NCBI GenBank assembly: GCA_029775965.1
Contig: JARVJU010000007.1
Location: 10,695 to 74,694 of the forward strand
Source of the DNA: Nitrososphaeria archaeon
GTDB taxonomy: Archaea > Thermoproteota > Nitrososphaeria > Conexivisphaerales > DTJL01
Reading direction: 5' to 3'
DNA: 64,000 bases
The position numbers were made by a program, and so were the translations under genes. The notes under the pieces are model-generated. The model did no database searches, had not been told where the DNA came from, and worked only from the letters and a program-made list of their open reading frames with translations. Below are positions 6,390 to 44,459 of the stretch, piece after piece (position 1 is the stretch's first letter; each line of letters opens with the position of its first letter).

Positions 6390-6806
6390 TCAGAGCAATC
6401 TTCGGATATTCCTACATCCCCGCCTTCTCCTTCCCTGATACAAGCAGAGAGTACAGGGAGATTTGAAGAATAAGGCATCCTCCAAGCTAAATACCATACA
6501 ATAGCACTGCAAGGATGTTCCAGAGAGAGATATCTCATTCAGTTGCTCAGTCAGACTGCAGTCATGATACTGATAGCACAGCATAAGAGCAACGTAACTC
6601 CATATGACTCGACTGGCCTCCCTACTATAAAGTATGGAAGATGTTTCGAAGTCAAGAACTCCAGGCAGAATGAGAAAAAGAAGTTCGTCAAACTCCCCCG
6701 TATAACCAACGATGCAGAGATGCCTTAGAGCATCCTCTGCCCATCCGGAGTAATTTGTGGGCAACACAGCATCTCCAAAATCAATAAATAGACAGAATAT
6801 TCGGTT
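6390..6806 (-). pseudogene. Possible 5'-truncated remnant of an APH/choline-kinase-like phosphotransferase
   Basis: The ORF from MNRIFCLFIDFGDAVLP starts at the conserved (I/V)DFGDA metal-binding motif of the kinase C-lobe. The N-lobe and catalytic loop are missing. The remainder of the 174 aa track ORF overlaps tRNA-Gly and is spurious. Confidence 0.25.
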
Positions 6807-6817
6807 CATTTGGCTGT

Positions 6818-6913
6818 GCGGCGATCGTCTAGAAAACGCATATGTTTGGACAGCCTGGTCTAGGACATCAGCCTGCCACGCTGGTAACGCGGGTCCAAAT
6901 CCCGCTCGCCGCA
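6818..6913 (+). tRNA. tRNA-Gly(GCC) with a 21-nt intron in the D-loop (6833..6853)
   Basis: Acceptor GCGGCGA/TCGCCGC plus A73. D-arm GTCT AG^CCTGGTCTA GGAC. Anticodon arm TCAGC CTGCCAC GCTGG. T-arm GCGGG TCCAAAT CCCGC. The intron is flanked by a BHB: 4-bp helix GTCT/GGAC, 3-nt bulges AGA and AGC, inner helix AAAC/GTTT. Mature length 75 nt. Confidence 0.85.
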
Positions 6914-7150
6914 CTCTAACCTAAATAATCAAAATTGGCATAGTCTGCAAAATGATGGTAAAATAGTCAGAAATTTAGCTATAAGATTTGGTTTTAAAGA
7001 GAAAGGTATCTCTTACTCTAACAATAAAGATCTTCTTCTAATTATGGCGTCTTGTGTTGACTGTGGTAATTGTATGCAGAGTTTAACTTACTACCCAAGG
7101 AAAGGCATATTCTTCAGTTTACCTTACCTTACTCATTCATGCCATTAAGC

Positions 7151-21579: not shown

Positions 21580-21627
21580 CATAGCCGCGGAAAAGGAAAT
21601 ATACATCCAAAAAACTGCCCTGTTCAG

Positions 21628-21716
21628 GCCGCGGTAGCTCAGCCTGGGAGAGAGCGCAGGCCTCTAACAATCGGCTGAAGACCGATGTGTCGCAGGTTCA
21701 ACTCCTGCCCGCGGCA
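21628..21716 (+). tRNA. tRNA-Phe(GAA) with a 13-nt non-canonical intron in the 3' D-stem (about 21655..21667)
   Basis: Acceptor GCCGCGG/CCGCGGC plus A73. Anticodon arm ATCGG CTGAAGA CCGAT. T-arm GCAGG TTCAACT CCTGC. BHB-like motif: helix AGAG/CTCT, bulges AGC and AAC. Mature length 76 nt. Confidence 0.88.
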
Positions 21717-39729: not shown

Positions 39730-40919
39730 TTGCATCGTGCTATTCTCCTCCAGACAGAAGCAACAACACATAAACGAAGTGTTCTTAACAGATTCATGGC
39801 AAAGTCTGTTGCATATGCCAATCTAGTGCTTGATAACAGATTGCCTTATGACTCTGCCTCTTCTCTTCAGACTAGAATGTATCAAATGGGGAAGAAGGAG
39901 TATGGATTCAATGCACAAGTCATATGTGAGATAATTCGAACAATAGCAAACTCCAAAGGAAAAAATGTGAATAGCATAACAATCAAGTTCAACATACCCA
40001 GAAACTGCAAGACATTTCGAACAAAGGGGTTCTTCTTTGTCGAACTGGGGCTCTATCCTAGGCATAGGATTGCCATACCAATACGAAAGAACCAAAACTT
40101 CGACAGGTTCAATGATTTGCTTGGAAACGGATGGACATGCAAGACGTTTGGTTTAACTCCAACTCTGGATATAGTTGCTTATCTGTCGAAGAAAGACGAA
40201 CCACTGGCATCGAGAAGGAATGTCCTAGGTATAGATATCAACGCCAAGAACTTCGCCTATACTGTCCTGACTCCAGAAGGGAAGATCCTCAAACAGGGAT
40301 ATCTAGGGCAACAAATATGGATTAAGAAGAGGCATTTTGAAGAGCGAAGAGCTATCTTATCTTACAGCACTTTAACAACCTGAAGCGATTGAAGAGGATG
40401 AGGCATAAGAAGAGGAATTATGTGAAGACAGGCATAGGGCAGATGGTTAGAGATATAATTCTTCTAGCTAAAAGATATAATGCTGACATCTCTGTCGAGA
40501 AGTTAAAGAGGTTCAAGCCAAAGGGCAGAATCTTCAACAGAAAGGTTATGACTATACCACTAGCTCTCTTCAGAAGAATACTTGAAGCGAGATGCTTTGA
40601 TCATGGGATTATGCTGAACAGAGTTGATGCTTACCATACAAGCAAATGGTGTTCCCATTGCTGTGCTGTTGGGAATGGACATGATGGAAGCATATACTCT
40701 TTGTTCAGATGCAAAGAATGTGGCCAGGTTGTAAATGCAGATAGAAAGGCAAGCTTGGCTGTAGCTATCAAAACTCTGGTGTTGCGGAAGCGATTCCTAA
40801 CAAGAAATGGTTCCAGATTAACACCAGAAGAGTCCCTGTCAACTAGCTTATGCATGGCTCTTATGCACATGGGCTGGAGGCTGTGCATAAACCAGTCCTG
40901 GGAAGGGGCAAGCCCATGA
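39730..40919 (+). pseudogene. tnpB: tnpB (OrfB) RNA-guided nuclease gene, interrupted by a frameshift near 40340-40385
   Basis: Two ORFs in different frames (39730..40383 and 40389..40919). RuvC-I LGIDIN, RuvC-II ISVEKL, zinc finger CSHCC...CKECG, RuvC-III NADRKASLAVA. Combined length is about 393 aa. Confidence 0.8.
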
Positions 40920-41333: not shown

Positions 41334-42317
41334 TTGCTTAATATTGTATTTTTCGGCTACGGTAACAGCGCCAGAGCTACTGTAGATTTCCTGCAAAGAG
41401 TGAAAAAAGGGGATGTGAATCATGCTGGTGTATGGCATGATAGAGTAGCAGGATTCTCTGTCCGGGATGTAGAAGTTGCTGCCTGCTTTGAAATAGATAA
41501 GTCAAAGTCGGGTAAAGATGTAAGTGTAAAGATATTGCCAGGCATAATAAAGGATGAGATACCAAGACATATAGAGTCACGCAGCTTAATGCATTGGTCC
41601 GAAGAAGAGGTGATGAAAAGTCTTAAGCAGATTAAACCAGATGTGGCTTTCAACGTCATATCTTCAGGTCAGGACAACGCATCAAAAGCTTATGCAAAGA
41701 TGTGTGCAGAGCTCGGAATACCCTTTGCCAATGCCACACCTGCAAGCATAGCTACAGACAGCTACTTTAGATCCATCTTTGCAGAAAGAAAGACACCCCT
41801 TGCAGGAGATGACTTGATGAGCCAGCTGGGTGGAACGGTGCTCCACAAAGGTATAATAGACTTTCTTGATTCAAGAGGGATAAAGGCTGTAAGAAGCTAT
41901 CAGCTGGATGTGGGTGGAAGCCCTGACACTTTAAATACAATAAAAGACGACATAAGGTCTCAAAAGAGAAGGATAAAGAGCAGCTCAATAGCTGGTGAGG
42001 TAGATTACAAAGTTGATGCTGTTGCTGGTACCACAGACTATGTAGAATTTTTGGGCAGCAGAAGAACAATATATTTCTGGATAGAAGGAAGGGGTCCGCT
42101 TGATGAGCCATACGAGATTGATATATTCTTCAAAAGCAGCGATCCAGCAAATGCGGTTAACATAATCATAGATGTGGCAAGAGCCCTAGCTAAGGCGAAG
42201 ATTGAAGGTAAGGGGGGGTTGGAAGAGATAATATCAGCTTATGGATTCAAGAATCCTGGCAGACGTGTAAAACAAAGGTCAGCTTTAGCAGAATTTGAGC
42301 AGACCTACGTAGGCTAA
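41334..42317 (+). CDS. Myo-inositol-1-phosphate synthase family protein (short, divergent)
   Basis: 327 aa. ANATPAS, AGDDLMSQLGGTVLH and QLDVGGSPDTLN align in order with the MIPS blocks FTPS / GxDGKTGET / NxGGNxDxxN, but with substitutions. Confidence 0.5.
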   Translation: MLNIVFFGYGNSARATVDFLQRVKKGDVNHAGVWHDRVAGFSVRDVEVAACFEIDKSKSGKDVSVKILPGIIKDEIPRHIESRSLMHWSEEEVMKSLKQIKPDVAFNVISSGQDNASKAYAKMCAELGIPFANATPASIATDSYFRSIFAERKTPLAGDDLMSQLGGTVLHKGIIDFLDSRGIKAVRSYQLDVGGSPDTLNTIKDDIRSQKRRIKSSSIAGEVDYKVDAVAGTTDYVEFLGSRRTIYFWIEGRGPLDEPYEIDIFFKSSDPANAVNIIIDVARALAKAKIEGKGGLEEIISAYGFKNPGRRVKQRSALAEFEQTYVG

Positions 42318-42379
42318 ATTTTTCTTCTCGAAAGGCTTATAACAATTTGCAGAATAACTCGAAACTTGCGCCGTCGAAT

Positions 42380-42504
42380 GCCGTCGTTGGTCTAGTGACC
42401 GACGAAAGCTCAGCGTGGTAGAGCAGCTGACTTTGACCTGGAAGGCTGACGCTGTTAACCACGCAGAGACCAGCTGGTCGCAGGTTCGAGTCCTGCCGAC
42501 GGCG
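42380..42504 (+). tRNA. tRNA-Asn(GUU) with three introns (42388..42406, 42430..42450, 42458..42468)
   Basis: Spliced product: GCCGTCG TA GCTC AGCGTGGTA GAGC A GCTGG CTGTTAA CCAGC TGGTC GCAGG TTCGAGT CCTGC CGACGGC G (74 nt, G73). Each intron is bounded by a BHB motif with cleavage after the second bulge nucleotide. Confidence 0.85.
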
Positions 42505-42794
42505 CTTATCAATCATCATCATGCATTGCATAGAATTACATAGTTTGACAGCTGGCAAATGCGAAGCACGTAAATAAATTTAAAAATGTTCAGATATGGC
42601 ATGTAAAATAACCTAATAATCATTTCAATATCCCATGGCTTATTGCAAAGAAAGCCTTTGCTCCTTGGGCAGAGCTACTATGTAAAGAATGGCTATGAAT
42701 CAAAGTGGGAGCATGTGCTTTAGCTGCAGGAGACAAAAATAATCATCTCTGCATCCAGCAAAGGATAAATCACATGCAAAAGAGCTAGCTATGC

Positions 42795-44459
42795 ATGTAC
42801 AAAGCTTCACCTGCAGATAGCATGATAGTTGAGCTGTGGAAGAAGGTATATCCTTCAGCTGCCTATACCATAGGCTGGCCAGAGTATGCAGGTAAGCTCT
42901 TCATTCCAAGCAAAGCTAACGTAGAGACTGCATTGGCTGAAGTAAAAAAGATTAGGAAGCAAATACAGAATGATCATCAGGCAAAGATCTTGGACAGCAT
43001 CGAGCTCGACCTACTGTTTGAAGAGCCCCAAACAATAATAGAAGGGATAGTAGGTACTATATTCAATCATCTCACAAAGGAAGGGCTTAACGAAGATCAT
43101 ATGGTCTCTCTCGTTTCGAATGTGATAGAAGCGCTTGATGCATCAATAGAGAGATTCAAGGACAAGAAAGTCCCGACAGGTGTCAAGGTGCTGACTCTTT
43201 ACAGCCTTAATGGAATACTCGAGATTCTTGACGTTGTGAAGGATCAAGCAAAGAACCAAAAGCTAAAGAGCCTATGCAACGTTGCAAAAGCGAAAGCAGC
43301 TGAATTCGTTTCTATGTTTAAGGTGGAAGGCTTCACAAAAGGAACATATCAGGAGGTGAGAGCTATATTTGAAAGGGAGAAATTTGACCTTGGAAGGGAA
43401 AAGATCTACAAAGATGCGTTGAAAAAGTGGTACGATTATGACGAAGGAGCCGAGGAATTGGAGCAGAACGCTCTGAGATGGATTCAAGAGGAGTTACCTA
43501 TGTACAGAGAAGTGATAAGGCAACTTTCCCAGCTGTATAGCTGCGAACCAGCAGTAGATGAGGTTGAAAAGAAGATAGAATCAAGGGTAAGAATAGAACC
43601 TGCTGAACTTGTCCAGACGACAGCAGCAATAAGAAATGTTGTACAGCGTTTTATAAATGAAAAGATAGTAAGGATAAATCCAAAGTACGATACGAGGTTG
43701 ATAGAGACACCTTCATACCTGACAGGAACCTTACCTACAGCAGCAGCTGGATTCTTTGATTCTATCACAGAAAAGCCATTTCAGCTCTATTTTATAACTA
43801 CAGATAGAGACAGAGACCCAATGAAGTCCTTGGCCTCGATAATAAACACGCTTGTGCATGAAGAGTATGGTCATTGTGTGCATCATTCAAACAGCTCCGT
43901 TGGCTTTGTTGAAGAGCTGAACATTCTTGATCTTCTACCAACCTCTTTCCAAGGGCCAGTAAGCGAAGGACTTGCCTTTAACAGAGAGCTGGAATTTATT
44001 CATGCAATAAAGGAGCTTGAAGATAATAAAGAATTAAGTGCTATAGAAAGAGAATATGTAAACCTTATGGAAAGATACGGCGGACTTCATCTTTGCAATC
44101 TTGAGGTAGAGTACGAAACAAGAAAATGGAGGCTGATCAGGTTCTTAAGAGTTGTAGGGGATGTAAGGGTGAATACAGGAAAGCAGACACTTTTTGAGTT
44201 CATCGACTGGGCTCATGCCTATACAGGCGTGCCAGCTGCAAACATATACTTCCAGCTCTTTCCAGCTCATGAGAGTATAGGGCCAGGCTATGCGACATGT
44301 TATGCTGTTGTAGGTGAGAAGATAAGAGAGCTTGAGAGCAGGATCAAAGAAAAGAACAGAAGAATAGAATTCTCCACATATCTATCTAGTATAGGTTCTC
44401 CACCCACAAGTATATACAGGAAGAAGCTTGAAGATTATCTCAAAAAGATAGTTGCCTAG
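42795..44459 (+). CDS. Hypothetical HExxH protein, possibly DUF885-like metallopeptidase fold
   Basis: 554 aa. Single LVHEEYGHCVHH motif about two thirds along the protein, resembling the DUF885 HExxPGHH block. No signal peptide is evident. Confidence 0.35.
   Translation: MYKASPADSMIVELWKKVYPSAAYTIGWPEYAGKLFIPSKANVETALAEVKKIRKQIQNDHQAKILDSIELDLLFEEPQTIIEGIVGTIFNHLTKEGLNEDHMVSLVSNVIEALDASIERFKDKKVPTGVKVLTLYSLNGILEILDVVKDQAKNQKLKSLCNVAKAKAAEFVSMFKVEGFTKGTYQEVRAIFEREKFDLGREKIYKDALKKWYDYDEGAEELEQNALRWIQEELPMYREVIRQLSQLYSCEPAVDEVEKKIESRVRIEPAELVQTTAAIRNVVQRFINEKIVRINPKYDTRLIETPSYLTGTLPTAAAGFFDSITEKPFQLYFITTDRDRDPMKSLASIINTLVHEEYGHCVHHSNSSVGFVEELNILDLLPTSFQGPVSEGLAFNRELEFIHAIKELEDNKELSAIEREYVNLMERYGGLHLCNLEVEYETRKWRLIRFLRVVGDVRVNTGKQTLFEFIDWAHAYTGVPAANIYFQLFPAHESIGPGYATCYAVVGEKIRELESRIKEKNRRIEFSTYLSSIGSPPTSIYRKKLEDYLKKIVA

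Follow-up and report, generated by a model that had tools for sequence, protein, structure and literature searches.

The window, a 64,000-nt stretch of a contig from a Conexivisphaerales archaeon (Nitrososphaerota), carries at positions 42380-42504 a tRNA-Asn(GUU) gene that is interrupted at three places and preceded by a short second copy of its acceptor 5' strand (Table 1). The host is a thermophilic hot-spring organism and not a crenarchaeon; its AlaRS is 99% identical to the AlaRS of a Conexivisphaerales MAG (Nitrososphaerota). We assign 42380-42504 with high confidence to a working tRNA-Asn(GUU) gene with three bulge-helix-bulge (BHB) introns at tRNA positions 8/9, 30/31 and 37/38.

Table 1. 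Features of the tRNA-Asn(GUU) locus. In the bulges, a hyphen marks the splice junction.
Feature	Coordinates	Strand	Description
Predicted archaeal TATA box	42337..42342	+	TTATAA, preceded by gaaagg; motif conserved upstream of orthologues
Leader strand	42368..42376	+	GCGCCGTCG; GC followed by a copy of the acceptor 5' strand; supplies the 5' side of the 9-bp leader helix
Spacer	42377..42379	+	AAT, between leader helix and exon 1
Exon 1	42380..42387	+	tRNA positions 1-8, GCCGTCGT; ends in U8
Intron 1	42388..42406	+	19 nt, positions 8/9, BHB; central helix CGTC/GACG, bulges GT-T and AA-A, inner helix GGTC/GACC with loop TAGT
Exon 2	42407..42429	+	positions 9-30: D arm and anticodon-stem bases 1-4
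Intron 2	42430..42450	+	21 nt, positions 30/31, BHB; central helix CAGC/GCTG, bulges TG-A and AC-G, inner helix CTTT/GAAG
Exon 3	42451..42457	+	positions 31-37, GCTGTTA; anticodon GTT at 42454-42456
Intron 3	42458..42468	+	11 nt, canonical positions 37/38, BHB in relaxed hBH form; central helix CTGT/GCAG, bulges TA-A and AG-A, 4-nt loop CCAC without inner helix
Exon 4	42469..42504	+	positions 38-73: anticodon-stem 3' strand, variable loop, T arm, acceptor 3' strand (42497-42503), G73 (42504)
Leader helix 3' half	42497..42505	+	acceptor 3' strand, G73 and first trailer base C

Excision of the three introns leaves a 74-nt molecule, GCCGTCGTAGCTCAGCGTGGTAGAGCAGCTGGCTGTTAACCAGCTGGTCGCAGGTTCGAGTCCTGCCGACGGCG, which ARAGORN reads as tRNA-Asn(gtt) without a cloverleaf defect; the unspliced and every partly spliced form give faulty models (Tyr, 'Stop', or stem mismatches). 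The spliced tRNA has U8, A14, G18G19, U33, a GUU anticodon, A37, a TTCGAGT T loop and G73, and CCA is not encoded. Compared with 19 contiguous intronless orthologues it is identical at positions 9-43 and shows 64/74 identity overall. The gene is 100% identical in a second assembly, GCA_038734905.1, which excludes an assembly artefact. In the genomic, unspliced sequence the gene is missed by ARAGORN, and the Rfam tRNA model reaches 31.1 bits with a wrong 5' strand and a 34-nt insertion in the anticodon loop; the only extra matches in an Rfam E-value scan of the window were a tRNA-Gly gene and one spurious lncRNA match.

At all three introns the junctions lie between the second and third bases of 3-nt bulges that adjoin a 4-bp central helix, and these helices are paired at 4/4 positions, two of them including one G.U pair. 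The outer helices comprise a 4-bp h' and a 2-bp h at intron 1 and a 4-bp h' at intron 2 (HBh' form); at intron 3, h' is absent and h is the anticodon stem, complete only once intron 2 is out. In this window a 4/4 helix in a fixed register has a chance of 0.0197 per position and length, and when the introns were shuffled all three junctions were satisfied in 1 of 100,000 trials (~1e-5). The Asn isotype, the three intron coordinates and the BHB registers had been proposed in the initial annotation, with which both ARAGORN on the joined exons and the helix pairing agree; its count of five introns in three window tRNA genes, four of them non-canonical, also holds. The folding z-score of the precursor is -5.4. 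Energetically, the BHB-1 register is inferior to a continuous 9-bp hairpin (42384-42392 with 42397-42405), which is better by 7.6 kcal/mol at 37 C and by 2.9 kcal/mol at 70 C, and the RNAalifold consensus likewise favors this shifted register, where the intron takes up C6, G7 and U8. Imposing all three BHBs together places the fold 20 kcal/mol above the minimum, and one clade (L070, L084, L088, L106, L209) has a C.A mismatch in the BHB-1 central helix.

A search using the exon 2 stretch as the pattern yielded 112 distinct orthologous loci, in 112/112 of which exon 2 is identical because that stretch was the search pattern. Scanning the genome collection with a degenerate 3'-half pattern returned mostly unrelated euryarchaeal and bacterial tRNAs, with seven useful orthologues among the matches. 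The 8/9 intron is present in 18 distinct orthologues besides the window gene, most of them also interrupted at 30/31 and 37/38; 16 distinct genes (window gene included) were parsed automatically, and L219, L225 and the bathyarchaeal L045 by hand. The same triple interruption is seen in 14 other aligned sequences and in L188 (a duplicate of L173), and apparently in L045 too. One metagenomic tRNA-Asn orthologue, represented by L219 and L225, has five introns. On the sequence record, the layout, which recurs in hot-spring, soil and marine lineages, is not a one-off.

The helices of the introns vary in a concerted manner among these genes. The inner hairpin of intron 1 covaries (GGGC/GCCC, AGTG/CACT, GGTGT/ACACC, GGCCCC/GGGGCC and others), as does the inner helix of a 30/31 intron ending in GCTGAN that occurs in 25 distinct orthologues (CTCC/GGAG, CTTC/GAAG). 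The 37/38 intron has GCAG or GCGG at the same place, with 96.7% of cells paired (helix 6). Over the whole 17-sequence alignment 90.7% of cells are paired, compared with 84.1% after shuffling and 25-53% with partners slid by 1-3 columns; 12 pairs changed on both sides, a number reached by none of 500 shuffles. Inner-helix columns are 100% paired by construction, because they were fitted by a pairing rule. Exon 1 and the acceptor 3' strand form 7/7 pairs in 17/17 orthologues (100% of cells), with a compensatory change of U5:A68 to C5:G68, and exon 1 always ends in U8.

The window gene is a known kind of tRNA gene in a new lineage. The tRNAscan-SE 2.0 census of 2021 lists 16 three-intron tRNA genes, every one of them from Thermoproteales; the 498 thaumarchaeal tRNA genes that it covers include none (PMC8450103 Table S7), in keeping with the earlier remark that triple-intron tRNAs were known only from a few crenarchaeal lineages. 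The multi-intron genes of Thermoproteales, such as tRNA-Glu(UUC) of Pyrobaculum calidifontis and tRNA-Pro(UGG) of P. islandicum with three introns each, resemble the window gene in their short BHB introns at canonical and non-canonical positions, in their relaxed motifs (hBH, HBh') and in the crowding of introns such that one must be out before the next motif completes (PMC4390854, PMC8450103). Unlike them, the window gene belongs to a Nitrososphaerota host, is of the Asn isotype, and has an 8/9 intron whose BHB takes in the acceptor 5' strand and which is accompanied by a conserved leader strand. The one- and two-intron tRNA genes of Thaumarchaeota, captured by the Thaum-BHB model of tRNAscan-SE 2.0, share with it the phylum-level group and the kind of intron. 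The thaumarchaeal census comprises 107 non-canonical introns and 39 two-intron genes in 11 genomes (PMC8450103 Table S7), and multiple non-canonical introns in Thaumarchaeota have already been remarked upon (PMC8450103). Where this thaumarchaeal census has no three-intron gene, the window gene has three introns and the metagenomic orthologue five. In the literature searched, we found nothing specific on a leader helix tied to acceptor-proximal introns or on tRNA introns in Conexivisphaera.

The acceptor-strand copy upstream of the gene had been described as perfectly complementary to 42497-42505, and so the sequence reads. The leader:42497-42505 duplex has a predicted energy of -20.1 kcal/mol (RNAduplex) against -6.7 +/- 2.1 kcal/mol for shuffled leaders; it is present in the minimum-free-energy fold of the window sequence and is recovered unprompted by RNAalifold in the consensus of 17 orthologues. 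Across the 16 intron 1 genes the duplex between leader and 3' end ranges from -16.2 to -21.0 kcal/mol (16/16), compared with a mean of -5.9 kcal/mol in 84 genes without intron 1. In 83 of these 84 the helix is absent, the exception being L186, which has kept a leader and has no intron 1. The gene L060, which shares its neighboring gene and promoter with leader-bearing genes, has neither the 13-nt leader block nor intron 1. Among ~357 tRNA-like matches in the collected loci, a second 5' strand was confined to members of the Asn family, to L045 (the bathyarchaeal Asn gene) and to three cases attributable to chance. The two other tRNA genes of the window are apparently leaderless.

The leader helix has changed in ways that mostly keep it paired. 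Nine core pairs are retained in 15/17 orthologues and seven in the other two; alignment columns 10:153 read C:G in five sequences, U:A in five, U:G in five and C.A in two, and a C.A mismatch lies in the leader helix of L030 and of L204. The leader substitutions comprise C/U opposite G and the U:A to C:G swap at columns 10:153. In every case the helix runs 2 bp past the copied strand, over G73 and the first trailer base, and in a marine clade it does so by 5 bp of other sequence (TGAGC:GCTCA). The spacer between leader and exon 1 varies from 0 to 7 nt and in sequence. In most of the 17 aligned 8/9-intron orthologues a promoter motif, (a/c)gCTTATAA, precedes the leader helix by 24-25 nt, counted to its first base, a few having a diverged or AT-rich box; in L060, without leader and intron 1, the box is 25 nt upstream of G1. 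Comparison of the orthologues thus indicates that the upstream copy is not an accident, given its strict link to the 8/9 intron. This link may largely reflect shared ancestry (some nine clades, with a single joint absence and a single exception).

With moderate confidence, we propose that the leader occupies the acceptor 3' strand for as long as exon 1 is paired with intron 1 and thereby helps the precursor to fold for splicing. Judging from promoter spacing only, transcription would start ~25 nt downstream of TTATAA, close to 42368, and the precursor would therefore have a 12-nt leader. The acceptor strand of exon 1 and the 3' end of intron 1 would pair locally into BHB-1, with its 4-bp helix, two 3-nt bulges and 4-bp inner hairpin, and the acceptor 3' strand, left without a partner, would be taken up by the first nine leader bases as a substitute closing helix. 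With this helix in place the 3' strand could not drive the intron off exon 1, and the precursor would stay compact. Consistent with this proposal, a fold constrained to BHB-1 chooses the leader helix unprompted, and beats the conformer with a normal acceptor stem by 8.5 kcal/mol at 37 C and 3.5 kcal/mol at 70 C.

By analogy with known archaeal splicing, the endonuclease would cut each bulge after its second base and an RtcB-type ligase would join the exons. Intron 2 is probably removed first, since the anticodon stem, the outer helix of the intron 3 motif, is continuous only without it. Once intron 1 is out, exon 1 would displace the leader from the 3' strand, whereupon RNase P would remove the leader, RNase Z the trailer, and CCA would be added. 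Counting against such a release of the leader, nearest-neighbor energies favor the leader helix over the acceptor stem also after splicing, by 6 kcal/mol at 37 C and 3.2 kcal/mol at 70 C. Pfam scans of 30 window proteins found no EndA, RtcB or RNase P protein among them. A broad-specificity endonuclease in the host is a reasonable expectation given the literature assignment of alpha2beta2 EndA to Thaumarchaeota (PMC4090602). Taken together, the gene model and the leader-assisted account of folding and splicing are, in our judgment, likely to explain the window tRNA-Asn.

The initial annotation had left open whether the upstream copy forms a leader-trailer helix or is a duplication scar. The comparative data support the helix and make a pure scar the less favored option, and the copy may still have originated as a scar. 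Unlikely, though to be taken seriously, is the alternative that the three-intron model is right and that the copy is a neutral remnant of the duplication or insertion that made intron 1, with no part in folding or splicing. Its complementarity to the 3' strand would then come free, because the leader amounts to little more than GC and a near-copy of exon 1; an alignment of L060 with L088 that has one ~33-nt insertion, placed behind an ancestral exon 1 corresponding to the present leader, is also feasible, L186 has the leader without intron 1, L030 and L204 tolerate the C.A mismatch, and intron gain via mobile elements carrying tRNA fragments has been proposed earlier (PMC4390854). A neutral remnant, however, would have to have been retained in some nine divergent clades, sampled from hot springs, soils and the sea, despite diverged spacers and flanks, with its changes confined to those preserving pairing (C/U opposite G; U:A to C:G). 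The helix also always exceeds the copied 7-mer, one clade extending it by different, mutually complementary sequences, the promoter spacing tracks the start of the leader, and the leader is absent from all but one of the 84 genes without intron 1.

Improbable is a second alternative, in which the leader's partner is the 3' end of intron 1 (CGTC to GACG) and the leader so presents the 3' splice site, the acceptor stem being normal in the precursor. The 4-mers are perfectly complementary in the window, in L030 and in the L070 clade, whose exon 1 mismatches the intron; yet in L204 it is the leader that mismatches the intron and exon 1 that fits perfectly, and in L173 and L188 exon 1 matches where the leader merely wobbles. 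Such pairing would leave the 5' splice site outside any 3-nt bulge adjoining a 4-bp helix, and the implied cut in the leader would lie at a lineage-dependent distance from G1, because the spacer ranges from 0 to 7 nt. It also demands the acceptor-stem conformer, which is the worse one by the 8.5 kcal/mol given above.

We consider it very improbable that the upstream copy, 42370-42376, is the true exon 1 and that a single ~30-nt intron holds the second copy. In the L070 clade, L119, L180 and L198 the copy is followed by T and can pair with the 3' strand, but on this reading the window, L030, L147 and L204 would have A8 instead of the near-universal U8, with an acceptor-stem C.A mismatch in L030/L204 and poor pairing in L131/L222, whereas the downstream copy is 7/7 paired, ends in U8 in 17/17 genes and covaries with the 3' strand. 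Hardly credible, lastly, is that the locus is a pseudogene or encodes a different isotype, such as Gln-UUG, Tyr-GUA or a suppressor, with a single long intron, as the Rfam match of 31.1 bits with its 34-nt anticodon-loop insertion and the ARAGORN calls of Tyr(gta) or 'Stop'(tta) on unspliced and partly spliced sequence might suggest: every such model has mismatched stems or an abnormal D arm, the exons are intact and conserved over many lineages, positions 9-43 match the intronless Asn genes, and the Gln-UUG reading with a single ~32-nt intron, which had been named as the rival at the outset, requires an A.C mismatch in the anticodon stem and finds no support in the comparison of intronless with intron-bearing orthologues.

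In split and permuted tRNAs and in archaeal rRNA precursors with leader-trailer helices, pairing outside the mature RNA shapes the endonuclease substrate (PMC4090602), as it appears to do here. There, the leader-trailer helix itself bears the BHB and is cut; on reading the sequence, we found no BHB formed by leader and trailer at the termini of the window tRNA-Asn. The leader of the window gene apparently only occupies the acceptor 3' strand, with the BHB forming elsewhere, and its removal would need RNase P. We also considered the leader CGTC as a central-helix strand, with an endonuclease cut at -1/+1. This arrangement fits only lineages with a 1-nt gap to G1, and an endonuclease cut at the tRNA 5' end was rejected because the offset from the 4-mer to G1 varies.

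These results extend the range of three-intron tRNA genes from Thermoproteales into Nitrososphaerota. That the 8/9 intron comes strictly together with a leader helix illustrates how flanking sequence, beyond the mature tRNA, could guide a precursor between its splice-competent and final folds. More tentatively, the 9-nt leader may be a dedicated RNA device, a substitute acceptor strand with a strand swap after splicing, that lets BHB introns persist where they conflict with tRNA folding, in a tRNA-Asn family that would be widespread in uncultured Nitrososphaerota and Bathyarchaeia and have up to five introns. Since the gene escapes ARAGORN and scarcely registers with the Rfam tRNA model, tRNA-Asn may seem to be missing from MAG annotations of these lineages. 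The five-intron orthologue, if confirmed, would raise the upper limit of tRNA gene fragmentation above the published maximum of three.

Read directly, the sequence at 42360-42510 is as the initial annotation had given it. ARAGORN found no tRNA there in the unspliced genomic sequence, and the Rfam tRNA model scored the locus at only 31.1 bits (gathering threshold, 29) in an alignment with a wrong 5' strand, starting within intron 1, and a 34-nt insertion in the anticodon loop. Removal of all three introns (see table) yields a 74-nt sequence that ARAGORN folds flawlessly as tRNA-Asn(gtt), bearing out the isotype and the three intron coordinates first proposed. The spliced sequence carries U8, A14, G18G19, U33, the GUU anticodon, A37, a TTCGAGT T loop and discriminator G73; CCA is not encoded. 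Whenever fewer introns were removed, the ARAGORN model was defective: a Tyr tRNA whose D arm is abnormal, a 'Stop' anticodon accompanied by an A.C mismatch, or an acceptor stem mismatched at two positions. The locus is a genuine three-intron gene, and the observation and main interpretation of the initial annotation hold.

Introns and neighboring features of the tRNA genes (a hyphen within a bulge marks the splice junction)
Feature	Coordinates	Intron length and position	Motif or remark
tRNA-Asn intron 1	42388-42406	19 nt, 8/9	central helix CGTC/GACG; bulges GT-T, AA-A
tRNA-Asn intron 2	42430-42450	21 nt, 30/31	central helix CAGC/GCTG; bulges TG-A, AC-G
tRNA-Asn intron 3	42458-42468	11 nt, 37/38	central helix CTGT/GCAG; bulges TA-A, AG-A
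tRNA-Gly(GCC)	6818-6912	21 nt (6833-6853), 15/16	central helix GTCT/GGAC; inner helix AAAC/GTTT
tRNA-Phe(GAA)	21628-21716	13 nt (21655-21667), 24/25	central helix AGAG/CTCT
myo-Inositol-1-phosphate-synthase-like gene	41334-42317		flanks tRNA-Asn gene
DUF885 protein	42795-44459		flanks tRNA-Asn gene on the other side
Two adjacent ORFs	39730-40919		~1.5 kb upstream of tRNA-Asn; second with Cas12f1/TnpB-like TNB domain
tRNA-Asn orthologue L219/L225		13 nt, 8/9; 15-17 nt, 30/31; 18 nt, 37/38; 30 nt, 53/54; 20 nt, 59/60	apparently five introns

All three junctions show 3-nt bulges beside a helix paired 4/4, formed by the tetranucleotide that stops two positions short of the exon end and the one that stops two positions short of the intron end, so that the bulge-helix-bulge (BHB) registers originally assigned stand. 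This geometry occurs across the window at a frequency of 0.0197 per position and intron length, and with shuffled introns all three junctions passed in 1 of 100,000 trials. Inner helices of 4 bp are also present in introns 1 and 2; intron 3 has only a 4-nt loop, and the outer helix of its motif is the anticodon stem, which is continuous only once intron 2 is out. The strongest evidence for the correctness of the predicted junctions is comparative: among 112 distinct orthologous tRNA-Asn loci, 84 lack an intron at 8/9, 74 of these are intronless, and 19 of the 74 are identical to the spliced product of the window over positions 9-43. The remainder of the 84 comprise nine loci with intron 2, with or without intron 3, and one (L186) whose sole insertion lies in the T loop.

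The predicted 143-nt precursor folds at -72.4 kcal/mol (z = -5.4 versus shuffles), and enforcing all three BHBs together costs 20 kcal/mol. Because exon 1 contains a CGTCGT tandem, the GACG of intron 1 can also pair three bases further along (42384-42405), and this non-BHB register, a continuous 9-bp hairpin, is the minimum-free-energy form, surpassing the BHB of intron 1 (BHB-1) by 7.6 kcal/mol at 37 °C and 2.9 kcal/mol at 70 °C; RNAalifold likewise favors the shifted register. On mechanistic rather than observational grounds, the BHB register alone would yield the correct product under the known cleavage rule.

Sixteen distinct loci with an 8/9 intron were parsed automatically, and L219, L225 and the bathyarchaeal L045 by hand; with the window itself left out, 18 orthologues carry this intron, in about nine clades including named Conexivisphaerales, Nitrososphaerales and 'Thaumarchaeota' MAGs. 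Its length is 15-23 nt, apart from 13 nt in L219/L225. Most of these loci also have the 30/31 and 37/38 introns; a marine pair (L131 and L222) combines the 8/9 intron with one at 59/60 instead. In a structure-aware alignment of 17 genes (loops padded with N; unchanged by MAFFT), the mature structure is paired in all cells, and the pre-splicing structure has standard pairs in 90.7% of cells versus 84.1% in shuffles and 25-53% with slid partners. Twelve pairs change on both sides, and the observed values were reached by none of 500 shuffles. Almost every intron has an anchored inner helix of 4-6 bp differing in sequence (GGTC/GACC, GGGC/GCCC, AGTG/CACT, GGTGT/ACACC, GGCCCC/GGGGCC, GGTCCC/GGGACC); the random expectation for a helix of at least 4 bp is ~2% by our own estimate from a pairing probability of 0.375, and the 100% pairing of the inner-helix columns is by construction, these having been set by a pairing rule. 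As the third pair of the BHB-1 central helix (exon 1 position 5), five genes have U:A, five have C:G and two have U:G, and one five-gene clade has a C.A mismatch there. The compensatory change from U5:A68 to C5:G68 identifies the downstream of the two copies of the acceptor 5' strand as the true exon 1.

The upstream copy, or leader (42368-42376, GCGCCGTCG), is perfectly complementary to 42497-42505, a segment comprising the 3' strand of the acceptor stem together with G73 and the first nucleotide of the trailer. The best duplex between leader and 3' end measures -16.2 to -21.0 kcal/mol in 16 of 16 genes with intron 1, versus a mean of -5.9 kcal/mol in the 84 genes without it (Mann-Whitney p = 2e-10, not a true probability since the sequences are related), where the sole strong duplex is that of L186 (-16.3 kcal/mol). 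RNAalifold predicts the leader helix unprompted. Its variation consists of C/U opposite G, with one pair being U:A, C:G or U:G but C.A in L030 and L204. In most genes with intron 1, the leader is preceded by a conserved CTTATAA box at a distance of 24-25 nt from its first base; in L060, an orthologue with neither leader nor intron 1, the box stands 25 nt ahead of G1. L060 shares its upstream gene end and promoter with L106, L070, L173 and L088, and relative to these is missing exactly the 13-nt leader block and a 22-nt intron.

The initial annotation had read the upstream copy as either a leader-trailer helix or a duplication scar. The leader may have begun as such a scar, even if now under selection, and an alternative alignment treats the locus as a single ~33-nt insertion following an ancestral exon 1; however, the leader has been retained while pairing is kept, with the nine core pairs preserved in 15 of 17 genes and the helix always extending 2 bp beyond the copied 7-mer, or 5 bp in the marine clade, with other sequences (TGAGC:GCTCA). 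The helix reading is thus favored by conservation, the tie to intron 1 and RNAalifold; the leader helix is a conserved addition that we infer to be functional. In the literature searched, we came across no account of an acceptor-proximal intron coupled to a leader strand, an absence that is no proof of novelty. A relative of the marine orthologues, L186 (MDTE01184334.1), keeps the leader strand (GAGTGTCGT) and has no 8/9 intron; it could represent a recent, precise loss of that intron.

When BHB-1 is enforced, the constrained fold takes up the leader helix unprompted, the leader-helix conformer reaching -64.8 versus -56.3 kcal/mol for the acceptor-stem conformer at 37 °C, and -24.9 versus -21.4 kcal/mol at 70 °C. 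Since the leader-helix conformer is favored under this constraint, we propose a sequence of events in which exon 1 and intron 1 would fold locally into the BHB during transcription, and the acceptor 3' strand, on emerging, would be captured by the free leader and so be unable to displace the intron; endonuclease and ligase would then remove the introns, after which exon 1 would replace the leader and RNase P would cut it off. The enzymes of this scheme are presumed on the strength of reviews and of what is well established for tRNA splicing in archaea; alpha2beta2 endonucleases, tolerant of relaxed BHB motifs, have been assigned to Thaumarchaeota (PMC4090602). A scan of 30 window proteins against Pfam yielded no splicing or RNase P protein. 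In the spliced RNA, the acceptor stem is still less favorable than the leader helix by nearest-neighbor energies, with a difference of 6 kcal/mol at 37 °C and 3.2 kcal/mol at 70 °C. Counting against the proposed scheme are this difference, the greater stability of the shifted register, the cost of enforcing all three BHBs, the leader without intron in L186 and the mismatched helices of L030 and L204.

Contig JAVYOB010000024.1 (assembly GCA_038734905.1) carries the locus with 100% identity, and the tRNA-Asn feature is therefore not an assembly accident. G+C content is 42% in the window versus ~60% in the tRNA. The alanyl-tRNA synthetase encoded in the window shares 99% identity with a protein named by NCBI as 'Conexivisphaerales archaeon', its next matches (56-67% identity) being from Conexivisphaerales or Nitrososphaerota; Conexivisphaerales is an order within the phylum Nitrososphaerota (formerly Thaumarchaeota), and the host is thus not a crenarchaeon. 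According to reviews, a tRNA gene has at most three introns, and genes with three occur mainly in Thermoproteales (PMC4033280; PMC4390854). Among 217 archaeal genomes, the tRNAscan-SE 2.0 census tabulates 16 genes with three introns, every one from Thermoproteales; for Thaumarchaeota it gives 498 tRNA genes, with 107 non-canonical introns and 39 genes containing two introns but none containing three. The same paper describes multiple non-canonical introns as known in Thaumarchaeota and supplies a dedicated BHB model for them (PMC8450103). The restriction of triple introns to a few crenarchaeal lineages, as initially stated, agrees with this census but not with the present host, and the tRNA-Asn gene therefore falls into an established class, in a lineage for which no three-intron gene had been listed.

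The two other interrupted tRNAs noted initially, tRNA-Gly and tRNA-Phe, have one non-canonical intron each and are called correctly by ARAGORN only after splicing. Their TATA boxes lie 27 and 24 nt from G1, respectively, so both appear leaderless, making tRNA-Asn the exception in the window. The acceptor 5' strand of tRNA-Phe (GCCGCGG) recurs exactly at 21584-21590, 44 nt upstream of the gene, between the putative TATA box and the stop codon of the preceding ORF, which it closely follows; this copy probably lies outside the transcript and may have arisen by chance, be a relic or belong to a terminator. Opposite tRNA-Gly, and overlapping all of it, a 174-aa minus-strand ORF (6390-6914) without a Pfam match is most likely not a gene. 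The ORF pair upstream of tRNA-Asn resembles an IS200/IS605-type TnpB that has been split or has decayed.

Orthologues L219 (SDBV01026051.1) and L225 (Ga0114947_10091878) apparently carry five BHB introns in a tRNA-Asn(GUU) gene, in contrast to the published maximum of three. The gene (170-172 nt; in L219 starting ~24 nt upstream of the core match, which is at offset 3871 on the strand carrying it) collapses to a canonical 74-nt Asn, with central helices paired 4/4 in four introns and 3/4 in the 37/38 intron. Outside Nitrososphaerota, L045 (Bathyarchaeia MAG CAZRDM010000002.1) has a tRNA-Asn gene apparently with introns at 8/9, 30/31 and 37/38, whose exon 1 is preceded at 18 nt by a GCCGCCG copy; this layout may therefore have a greater age, or a greater mobility, than confinement to a single phylum would imply. 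Lastly, an Odinarchaeota MAG (L077) and a Baldrarchaeota MAG (L089) have tRNA-Asn genes of ~130 nt with inserted sequence both at 37/38 and in the D-arm/anticodon-stem region; these appear to be additional Asn genes with several introns, from Asgard-related lineages.
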